Of a stretch of 64,000 nt of DNA, positions 36,620-38,420 are shown one piece after another. Position 1 is the stretch's first letter, and each line of letters opens with the position of its first letter. A program made the translations under genes and the position numbers. Source of the stretch: Escherichia phage Andreotti; sequence record MN850610.1; one strand, 5' to 3'. Under the pieces are notes generated by a model. It ran no database searches and had not been told where the DNA came from. It was given only the letters and a program-made list of their open reading frames with translations.

Positions 36620-36926
36620 CACTTAAGAGTCTTTGAAAAGGGTTTTTTAAGTGATGTGGGGCGAGGCTCGGTGAGGTGGGGTAAGGCATAGTGCGGTGCT
36701 GTTTGGTATGGGTAGTTAGTCTCAGCTACATTAAAATGAGACTTACCTTTTTAAAAGGTCTTTAAACAGGGTCTTTTAATAAGGTTGTGTGATGTGATGT
36801 ATGGTGCTGTGGAGTTTGGTTAGGTCCGGTCAGGTATGGTATGGTGATGTGAGGTATGGGTGGATGGTAGTAGCCACGTTAAAAATCTACCAAGTTTCTA
36901 AAGAGTCTTCTGTTGAGGGTTCTTTA
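36620..36926 (+). repeat. repeat array A: two full modules (hairpin-1, G/T-rich pentamer tract, hairpin-2) plus a terminal hairpin-1 copy
   Basis: hp1 36620-36653 and 36745-36785; GT tracts about 36654-36715 and 36786-36865; hp2 36718-36743 (then T5) and 36866-36891; hp1 variant 36899-36926. Confidence 0.75.
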
Positions 36927-36967
36927 CAAACAACTTAACAATCAACTAAAGTGTGGAGCTAAATGCT

Positions 36968-37555
36968 ATGAAACTGTTAAATATCAAAATCACTGGTACT
37001 CGTCCTTTCCTGAGCCATGCAGATACTCTGTCAGACCCATTAAACCCTCTGACAAAATATCACAAGTCTCTGTCCAGTAAACGTAAAAAGACTGACGAAG
37101 ACTATGCGCTCTTAGCAGAAAGTCAACTGGTAACTTCTTGCTACTACGATGACCAACTAGGTTTTGTTATGAACGGTGAGATGATTGAGGCTTGTATCAA
37201 GTCTGGTGCAAAACTCAATAAACTTGGTAAGGTAATTGACCGAGCCATTATGCTGACAGATGTAGTCTTCCCAATGACTATCAAGAACTGCCCAGCAAAC
37301 CCACAAGAACTTGCTAAGAATCCAGACTTTATCTATGCTAAGTCTGTTAAGATTGGTACAGCACGAGTTATGAGCTACCGTCCAATCTTCCGTGACTGGT
37401 CTGTAGAGTTCGGTTTGATGTTCGATGAAGAGCAAATCACCAAAGAAGAACTCTTGATGGTTCTGGAAAATGCTGGTAACCTTTGTGGTGTAGGTGATTG
37501 GCGTCCACGCTTTGGTCGTTTTTCTGTAGAAGTTATTTCAGAAGGTAACGTTTAA
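36968..37555 (+). CDS. hypothetical protein (cassette gene 1)
   Basis: ORF between the two repeat arrays; start set to in-frame ATG 36968; no recognisable motif. Confidence 0.5.
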
Positions 37556-37557
37556 TT

Positions 37558-37998
37558 ATGAATACAAAAGCATTAGCAGCAAAGTTTAGTTACGGTGACA
37601 CTGTATCACACTCTGAGATGGATACCTTCTTAGGTATTGTGAAGCCAACTTATCAAGGTGACATTGTTAAGTACGAAGATGAAATGAAGGCTTATGCGCT
37701 TACACGTCTAAACCGACTTGAGAAGTTTATTGAGAAGCTTCTTAAAGAAGAGAAGATTTATCTGGTTGCTTCAATGGGTGTTGGTTATCGTGTGGTTGAG
37801 CCTAAGCATCAAGCAACTATTGCAAAACGCAAAATGTCTGGTAAGATTGGTCGTGCTTTAAAGCAAGCCACTCAAGCGATTGAGAATGTGAACACTATGG
37901 CACTTAGCCATCAAGAACGTTCACGACTAATTGAACAGCAAAACCACTTAGCTGCTATGAAAGCTAACATTAACAAGCAACGTAGAAAACCTTTCTAA
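37558..37998 (+). CDS. hypothetical protein (cassette gene 2)
   Basis: 2-nt spacing to gene 1; basic C-terminus; followed by a terminator. Confidence 0.5.
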   Translation: MNTKALAAKFSYGDTVSHSEMDTFLGIVKPTYQGDIVKYEDEMKAYALTRLNRLEKFIEKLLKEEKIYLVASMGVGYRVVEPKHQATIAKRKMSGKIGRALKQATQAIENVNTMALSHQERSRLIEQQNHLAAMKANINKQRRKPF

Positions 37999-38011
37999 GT
38001 TGACTAGGTAG

Positions 38012-38034
38012 CCTCTTCGGAGGCTCCTTTTTAA
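38012..38034 (+). terminator. intrinsic terminator (agcctc-ttcg-gaggct plus T5)
   Basis: GC hairpin with T-run 14 nt after cassette gene 2 stop. Confidence 0.55.
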
Positions 38035-38420
38035 AAGGTCTTTAAACAGGGTCTTTTAATAAGGTATTGTTCGGTGTTGTATGGTAGGGTCTGGTCCGGC
38101 AGGGTCTGGTTCGGTCCGGTAGGGTCTGGTATGGGTAGTTAATCGGAGCTACATAAAAATTCGATTACATCACTTAAGAGTCTTTTAAGAGGGTTTTTAA
38201 GTGAGGTGTGGCACGGTAATGCTAGGTAGGGTCAGGTCAGGTCAGGTGAGGTAAGGTGTGGGTAGTTAGTCTCAGCTACATTAAAATGAGACTTACCTTT
38301 TTAAAAGGTCTTTAAGAGGGTCTTTTAATAAGGTATTGTATGGTGTAGTTTGGTTAGGTATGGTTGGGTGTGGTAAGGTAGGGTATGGAAGGATGGCAGT
38401 AGCCTTATAAAAAATCTGCC
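38028..38420 (+). repeat. repeat array B: three modules (hairpin-1, G/T-rich pentamer tract, hairpin-2)
   Basis: hp1 38028-38067, 38173-38205, 38297-38336; GT tracts 38068-38140, 38206-38267, 38337-38394; hp2 38142-38169, 38270-38295 (then T5), 38395-38420. Confidence 0.75.

Follow-up and report, generated by a model that had tools for sequence, protein, structure and literature searches.

The closest described counterpart of the locus analysed here is VIPR (Viral Interference Programmable Repeat), a CRISPR-like weapon of phages presented in a preprint of 25 June 2026 (bioRxiv 10.64898/2026.04.26.720920). VIPR comprises a stand-alone RAMP homologue of ~20 kDa, Vipr, an accessory gene, vap, and RNAs called vrRNAs. 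Each vrRNA has 9–16 YNNGG repeats, in which GGY is conserved and NN hypervariable, and ends in a conserved 3′ tail; in the SUSP1 clade this tail folds into a pseudoknot. In Escherichia phage SUSP1, small-RNA sequencing and pull-down showed the vrRNAs to be ~100-nt RNAs that co-purify with Vipr. Their NN dinucleotides recognise targets in double-stranded DNA, leaving out one base between neighbouring dinucleotides; binding represses transcription in GFP assays and reprogramming of NN alone redirects the repression; most natural SUSP1 targets lie in an Escherichia coli satellite element, with the skipped base at the third codon position. The same study analysed 41 vrRNAs, mentions vrRNAs of satellites and describes hammerhead-punctuated VIPR arrays in other types (bioRxiv 10.64898/2026.04.26.720920). 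In this work we analysed a 64,000-nt stretch (the window) of Escherichia phage Andreotti (MN850610.1), and we identify with high confidence its positions 36559–38472 as a type II VIPR locus of the SUSP1 clade, with Vipr, vap and five vrRNAs apparently directed against the E. coli satellite. The locus has a small RAMP protein, Vipr, in a two-gene viral setting that lacks a CRISPR array and other cas genes, vrRNAs of YNNGG repeats within the 9–16-unit range, a pseudoknot tail, and matches with a 1-nt skip that converge on the satellite. The system is already known, and the remaining novelty is limited to a hairpin that precedes each vrRNA (hairpin-1), to tRNA-like elements of actinobacteriophages and to the target set of this phage.

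The gene vipr (36968..37555, + strand) encodes a 195-aa Cas7-like RAMP protein (phrog_4652) that is identical at 191 of 195 residues to PDB 36pp_D, 'SUSP1 Vipr protein' (E 2e-128). The same entry is the single solved-structure match of the vipr-family profile in the PDB (E 2.4e-79). When the AlphaFold model of the window's Vipr (pLDDT 95.3) was compared with the PDB by Foldseek, all 44 of the 44 matches with E≤1e-3 were CRISPR RAMPs, namely Csm3, type VII Cas7, Cmr subunits and Cas6. Right behind it lies vap (Vipr accessory protein, vap1 type; 37558..37998, + strand), which encodes 146 aa (phrog_5926); Pfam has no family for either product. Distant vipr homologues, at 23–44% identity, are found in metagenomic viral contigs and in phages of Pseudomonas, Gordonia, Mycobacterium, Vibrio and Listonella. 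At each of the six distant loci examined, vipr has a gene of 140–190 aa downstream, which abuts it directly in three. By pairwise comparison, Vap is 28% identical to gp08 of Pseudomonas phage Medea1, the product of the gene after vipr (E 3e-13); the pairwise comparison with the gene of contig L026 was not significant, and a word-indexed protein search with vap returned just three close relatives. Period-5 G-rich tracts flank the same gene pair at nearly every distant vipr locus, even in unrelated genome contexts, and therefore the tracts travel with the two genes. An initial annotation, made from the letters of the sequence, had described the arrays as not explained by any gene; the two genes that lie between them encode their protein partners.

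The RNA half of the locus consists of five modules of one architecture, all on the + strand and all at the positions that the annotation had given: a hairpin of ~18 bp, then 11–15 phased GGY-NN pentamers, then a 34-nt 3′ element. Two vrRNAs are placed upstream and three downstream of vipr and vap. Their guide tracts, also on the + strand, span 36655..36709 (vrRNA1, 11 KGY-NN units), 36783..36857 (vrRNA2, 15 units), 38063..38132 (vrRNA3, 14 units), 38205..38259 (vrRNA4, 11 units) and 38332..38386 (vrRNA5, 11 units). The strict 5-nt phasing claimed for them holds, with GG or GT recurring in a single phase along each whole tract, and a period-5 GT detector applied to both strands of the window returned precisely these five tracts and none on the minus strand. 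The arrays also contain, as had been claimed, no open reading frame of at least 60 aa, and their description as small structured non-coding RNA genes of the + strand is supported. The repeat code was assessed on the 69 unique tracts that 21 related Felixounavirus loci provide. Of the positions of a unit, K has an entropy of 1.02 bits, G of 0.12 and Y of 0.48, as against 1.92 and 1.88 bits for the two N, and among phages whose Vipr proteins are 97–99% identical the guides in identical slots are entirely different. In vrRNA1, the NN dinucleotides are, in order, GG, GA, TC, GA, GG, AA, AT, GC, GC, TT and AT. It is here that the initial annotation fell short, since it missed the guide function: the variable NN dinucleotides specify DNA targets. 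It had recognised no described RNA or repeat family, and had named a confident Rfam match to a known family as grounds to drop the claim of novelty. Rfam gave no match in the whole window at the gathering score, and nothing but two chance snoRNA matches in 36300–38700 at E≤10; the known family came instead from PDB 36pp and the VIPR preprint, and the claim of an undescribed family falls. A tandem-repeat scan of the window showed no CRISPR-like array, and ARAGORN found no tRNA or tmRNA.

All tails share one gapless frame of 34 nt, made up of GG, S1 (4 nt), L1 (2), S2 (7), L2 (1), S1′ (4), an A-rich L3 (7) and S2′ (7). Across 22 distinct tails, this H-type pseudoknot has 89.7% of its cells paired, and in 9 of the 11 pairs both sides change, while slid controls gave 28–40% pairing. 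On the + strand of the window, the tail of vrRNA1 (36710..36743) is of type A, with GTAG/CTAC, AGTCTCA/TGAGACT and the A-rich loop 3; that of vrRNA2 (36858..36891) is of type B (GTGG/CCAC, GGTAG/CTACC), that of vrRNA3 (38133..38166) of type A′ (GTAG/CTAC, AATCGGA/TTCGATT), that of vrRNA4 (38260..38293) again of type A and that of vrRNA5 (38387..38420) of type B′ (AAGG/CCTT, GGCAG/CTGCC). The stem reported earlier as a second hairpin is thus real and corresponds to helix 2 of the pseudoknot; part of its supposed loop (CTAC, CCAC or CCTT) pairs with the nearby upstream GTAG, GTGG or AAGG. The T5 run behind two of the tails, which had been read as a terminator, is the 5′ strand of the next hairpin-1. 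Because satellite vrRNAs keep the tail without hairpin-1, the tail is the likely handle for Vipr, and hairpin-1 more likely serves the expression of the array.

What do the five guides recognise? When the locus was compared by BLAST with 5,426 complete E. coli genomes, 134 chromosomes showed a vrRNA-like match of 77 nt. This match lies in an integrated element of ~11 kb with a large serine recombinase, baseplate and tape-measure proteins, an HNH endonuclease and a small recombinase, a satellite family that is present in 539 of the 5,426 genomes. We scanned seven satellite variants (L153–L159) with the five guides, allowing skips of 0–3 bases. The best matches with a 1-nt skip were 19/22, 25/30, 23/28, 20/22 and 20/22 for vr1 to vr5, compared with a background of 15–19 for skips of 0, 2 and 3; shuffling the order of the units reached the observed score in 1, 0, 0, 0 and 0 of 300 trials, respectively. 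The positions recur at homologous sites in several variants. The guides vr1 (19/22) and vr2 (25/30) match the large serine recombinase gene, vr3 (23/28) the opposite strand of the tape-measure gene, vr4 (20/22, with the inner nine units perfect) a hypothetical gene, and vr5 (20/22) the -10/start region at the TTGACA-N17-TAGTAT promoter of a leftward operon. By arithmetic on the annotated coordinates, the skipped base coincides with the third codon position at the vr1, vr2 and vr3 targets. The E. coli locus L152, which holds a satellite remnant only, gave no targets. Within the 64-kb window, self-targeting at skip 1 is at background and skip 3 trivially recovers the vrRNA genes; that these genes match their own guides at skip 3 only provides a simple reason why they escape self-recognition.

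The satellites themselves carry a single orphan vrRNA of 12–13 units with a phage-type tail B (L152 14930–15080, L153 19930–20080, L154 12700–12860 and L158 11600–11750). In L152, L153 and L158 this vrRNA is preceded by a TATAAT promoter of its own. The tail shows a compensatory A-U to C-G change in S2, hairpin-1 is absent, and no vipr gene lies nearby; presumably, the satellite vrRNA borrows the Vipr of the helper phage.

If this phage follows what was reported for the SUSP1 system, whose Vipr is 98% identical, Vipr subunits would assemble along the repeat tract, with the GGY positions held by the protein and the NN dinucleotides pairing with double-stranded DNA, one target base being skipped between them (an NNx code). 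Binding of the Vipr-vrRNA complex would then block transcription, and we infer that the phage would in this manner silence a satellite that would parasitise it.

The second structured element, hairpin-1, folds as + strand RNA into ~18 bp with an apical loop of 4–6 nt. The initial annotation was right in proposing a structured stem that covaries; its "loop core" is in fact base-paired, GUCUU facing (A)GGGU with three G·U/U·G pairs among them, which makes an ~18-bp hairpin of what had seemed a short stem with a big conserved loop. Over 24 distinct copies, which fall into three stem types, pairing is kept in 92.4% of cells and both partners change at 7 of 18 pairs, so that, together with the tails, the covariation claimed for both elements was borne out. 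The G·U pairs are conserved, and rare variants of the upper stem (U·G to C-G, U·G to U-A) preserve pairing. Five copies were compared on the two strands, and the fold is stronger on the + strand (-12.8 to -20.3 kcal/mol) than on the minus strand (-5.7 to -12.7 kcal/mol). The core motif GTCTT-N4-10-GGKTYTTT occurs seven times where 0.09 occurrences are expected, six of the seven being at this locus; a scan of IMG/VR with the same motif returned mainly chance single matches and is uninformative outside Felixounavirus. The six copies lie on the + strand: copy 1 (36616..36656; type A, lower stem CACTTAA/TTAAGTG; -20.3 kcal/mol, z -5.3, minus strand -12.7), copy 2 (36745..36785; type B, stem ACCTT.TTAAAAGGUCUU / AGGGUCUUUUAA.AAGGT), copy 3 (36892..36933; type C, TAAAGA/TCTTTA), copy 4 (38025..38065; type B), copy 5 (38167..38207; type A) and copy 6 (38295..38334; type B). 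Copy 3, with its core at 36905, precedes a gene, vipr, instead of a tract and separates vipr from vrRNA2. The upstream array has three copies for two vrRNAs; in the downstream array one copy stands before each of the three vrRNAs, and a terminator hairpin follows the last tail. In the relatives L016 and L008 (~5190–5260), a type A hairpin-1 carries an insertion of ~27 nt in the apical loop (AAATTATATTCGATAGAGTATCTCATAG), between GTCTTT and GGGTTTTT; from these sequences, the apex appears to tolerate large insertions. The self-cleaving ribozymes pistol, hatchet and twister, considered for hairpin-1 and the tail, were rejected as Rfam gave no signal.

Transcription of the upstream half probably starts from a sigma-70-type promoter, TTGACA-N16-TATACT (36559..36586, + strand), which the initial annotation had pointed out and which has 11 of 12 matches in a consensus scan; going by its sequence and position, it would drive the upstream vrRNA array, vipr and vap. 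Right after vap there is an intrinsic-terminator-like hairpin, AGCCTCTTCGGAGGCT with a T-run (38010..38032, + strand), the T-run overlapping the 5′ strand of hairpin-1 copy 4. The downstream array ends in a long hairpin with T5 (38421..38472, + strand), an inverted repeat with a folding energy of -17.8 kcal/mol (z -5.1). This hairpin has arms of 19 bp, its loop holds the -35 TTGACA of the promoter of the next gene and a promoter-like site is found at 38440; a putative terminator and the predicted promoter of the next gene are thus interleaved at 38421–38472.

Can the tracts be accounted for without a guide function? GG runs 3 nt apart could in principle form two-tetrad quadruplexes and a strict periodicity suits a multi-subunit binder, so that the GGYNN tracts might be two-quartet G-quadruplexes of RNA or DNA, or sponges for a host RNA-binding protein, as in titration of TRAP or CsrA. 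However, neither needs a near-maximal NN entropy beside a fixed GGY, nor NN strings whose agreement with satellite DNA, for one particular skip rule, far exceeds that of permuted controls, and the partner, a RAMP protein, is encoded by an adjacent gene. We consider such an explanation very improbable. The quadruplex part of the initial annotation found no support, and its other proposal, a phased G-rich tract serving as a multivalent protein-binding platform, is supported with Vipr as the partner. Even less credible, to the point of being negligible, is that the arrays work at the DNA level, either as replication-origin iterons, an alternative that the annotation had also raised, or as sites for partition or packaging proteins. 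The location in a neighbourhood of replication genes and the short direct repeat GTCTTT...GGGTCTTT within hairpin-1 would fit that role, but every tract lies on one strand, the tracts are hypervariable, with units that change from copy to copy and among near-identical phages, other phages carry the cassette within tail-gene clusters, and the flanking structures need G·U pairs and a pseudoknot, which exist solely in the + strand RNA. The iteron or origin reading was rejected on these grounds. A type III toxin-antitoxin system, in which near-identical tandem RNA repeats precede the gene of an endoribonuclease toxin, was also discarded, since the modules differ in each copy and the neighbouring protein is a RAMP and not ToxN-like. 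Other early ideas were a TRAP-like ring binder, a T7-type primase recognition cluster (GGGTC/TGGTC), a Chi-like or RecA-loading GT-rich tract, an anti-Shine-Dalgarno sponge, a ToxI-like antitoxin and a preQ1-like pseudoknot; they were dropped because the match to the PDB entry and the preprint, together with the target test, explained the pattern.

The role of hairpin-1 is a separate question. One possibility is that it acts as a punctuation signal at which the array transcript is cut into single vrRNAs, either by the host RNase III or by a Vipr-dependent cut, and we would give this a chance that comes near to even. The more specific proposal, that hairpin-1 is an undescribed maturation element of type II VIPR arrays cut by RNase III or by a Cas6-like Vipr, is somewhat more tentative. 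In the part of the preprint text that was available, the words RNase, stem, leader, terminator and maturation do not occur and no element 5′ of the tract is described. Alternatively, hairpin-1 might be a promoter-like or regulatory element for each vrRNA and for vipr, or it might remain on the mature RNA, as a stabiliser of the 5′ end or a site where Vipr nucleates. The presence of a copy ahead of every tract and ahead of vipr would be expected of such elements, as would the sequence conservation of the upper stem and loop, and in type B a weak TTAAAA-N18-TTTAAT, which failed the promoter scan, would start transcription at the first unit and yield a product of ~100 nt. On the other hand, covarying stems with G·U pairs point to an RNA structure over a site in duplex DNA, the scan found no acceptable sigma-70 promoter in any hairpin-1 copy, and satellite vrRNAs work with the same tail and without hairpin-1. 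Since the mature vrRNA is reported to be shorter than 100 nt, there is no room in it for the 41-nt hairpin in addition to tract and tail. We thus regard these alternatives to processing as unlikely, though they keep an appreciable share of the probability.

Some points weigh against our interpretation of the locus as a VIPR system with hairpin-1 as its punctuation. Transcription of the vrRNAs, their ~100-nt size and their co-purification with Vipr are known from SUSP1, through the preprint, and would apply here by analogy, and the source of the mechanism is a preprint. The best natural matches reach 82–91%, none being perfect, in 7 satellite variants sampled from 539 genomes, and the base passed over at the vr4 target does not coincide with a wobble position in the annotated open reading frame. 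A strong terminator-like hairpin (38010–38025) stands between vap and the downstream array, with no good sigma-70 promoter after it; with this terminator behind vap and no sigma-70-like promoter before vrRNA3, the downstream array needs readthrough or an unrecognised promoter. Finally, we infer the processing role of hairpin-1, and satellite-encoded vrRNAs lack this hairpin.

The source phage is Felix O1-like and belongs to Felixounavirus; its region 36300–38700 is 97.5% identical to that of Escherichia phages heid and ekra and is matched by 256 phage records. The arrays sit among replication genes, between DNA ligase and nucleotide-metabolism genes, and in other phage records they are unannotated or labelled just "repeat_region" or "DR_4". 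Vipr at ≥90% identity is carried by 117 phage records. Because Vipr is encoded in just 117 of the ~256 Felixounavirus-like records that match the region, and because the annotation of wV8 gives a Felix O1 counterpart for neither vipr nor vap, the VIPR cassette looks like an accessory island, present in some of these phages and missing from others, that lies between the ligase gene and the conserved gene that comes next. Upstream, a 52-aa open reading frame (36404–36562 of the window, phrog_22006) ends within the -35 element of the VIPR promoter; its very hydrophobic product is probably a small membrane protein. In Medea1 (L147, 2995–4150) the vipr/vap/vrRNA cassette is located between tail assembly genes K and I, beside genes for Rha, Arc and an HTH regulator, and in Mycobacterium phage LittleE (L149, 2650–4470) it is located between tape-measure and minor tail genes, positions within tail-gene clusters that look moron-like from gene order.

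Another type of structure accompanies the tracts of actinobacteriophages. In Gordonia phage MakoManhole (L148, 2990–3025 and 3100–3140) and in LittleE (L149, 2745–2795 and 4205–4250), each GGC-NN tract is followed by a tRNA-like minihelix, in which an acceptor-type stem is stacked on a T-arm, with a GGTTCGAnTCC loop and a linker of 10–11 nt; LittleE has an additional GNRA-like hairpin ahead of it. ARAGORN and Rfam do not call these minihelices as tRNAs, and the word tRNA is absent from the available portion of the preprint text. They could be punctuation for RNase P/Z. If so, VIPR clades would have independently recruited at least three RNA-punctuation devices: hairpin-1, tRNA-like minihelices and hammerhead ribozymes.

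VIPR was published as a new mode of RNA-guided DNA recognition and has been proposed as an ancestor of CRISPR; the finding is of biological importance although no longer new. The RNA half of a system published in mid-2026 was recovered by the initial annotation from raw sequence alone, and our analysis independently reproduces, on different data, the preprint's claims on the GGY/NN code, the pseudoknot tail, the 1-nt-skip rule and the satellite targets. In addition, the target set of this phage's five guides is now given, and the guide repertoire of Felixounavirus, with 69 unique tracts from 21 loci, proves much larger than the 41 vrRNAs of the preprint. How type II arrays are split into single guides matters for the engineering of multiplexed VIPR arrays.

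The comparison with other known systems places these features in context. TRAP binds (G/U)AG-N2-3 repeats in the Bacillus trp leader, about eleven triplets with spacers of 2–3 nt, each bound by one subunit. As in the tracts, conserved triplets and short spacers are read by a multimeric RNA-binding protein; in contrast, the spacers of TRAP sites are free of information, TRAP has no nucleic-acid target and its fold is unrelated. The early transcripts of phage T7 carry RNase III processing hairpins, and tRNAs or ribozymes punctuate polycistronic RNAs elsewhere. The ~18-bp hairpin-1 likewise lies between functional units of a presumed polycistronic transcript, although it is shorter than canonical RNase III substrates, its upper stem is conserved in sequence and its cleavage is putative. 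With class 1 CRISPR-Cas, in which a Cas7/Csm3 filament forms on the crRNA, the locus shares the RAMP fold, one subunit per short RNA segment, a periodically interrupted target pairing, a variable guide with a conserved structured handle and arrayed guides that need processing, and hairpin-1 brackets vrRNA units in an n+1 pattern, as CRISPR repeats do. VIPR differs in being phage-encoded, in lacking a Cas1/Cas2 adaptation module, a repeat-spacer array and other cas genes, and in its period, which is 5 nt in the RNA and 3 nt in the target, with two of every five guide bases pairing. The nearest relative is the type II VIPR of SUSP1 (PDB 36pp). The upstream vrRNAs number two in this phage and one in SUSP1, the guide sequences are particular to this phage, and hairpin-1 punctuation and a terminator before the downstream array are absent from the preprint text as far as it was available. 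Both systems have the same order of vrRNA(s), vipr, vap and vrRNA array, the same YNNGG code and the same pseudoknot tail types; their Vipr proteins are 98% identical, and the guides of both are directed at the same class of target, the E. coli satellite.

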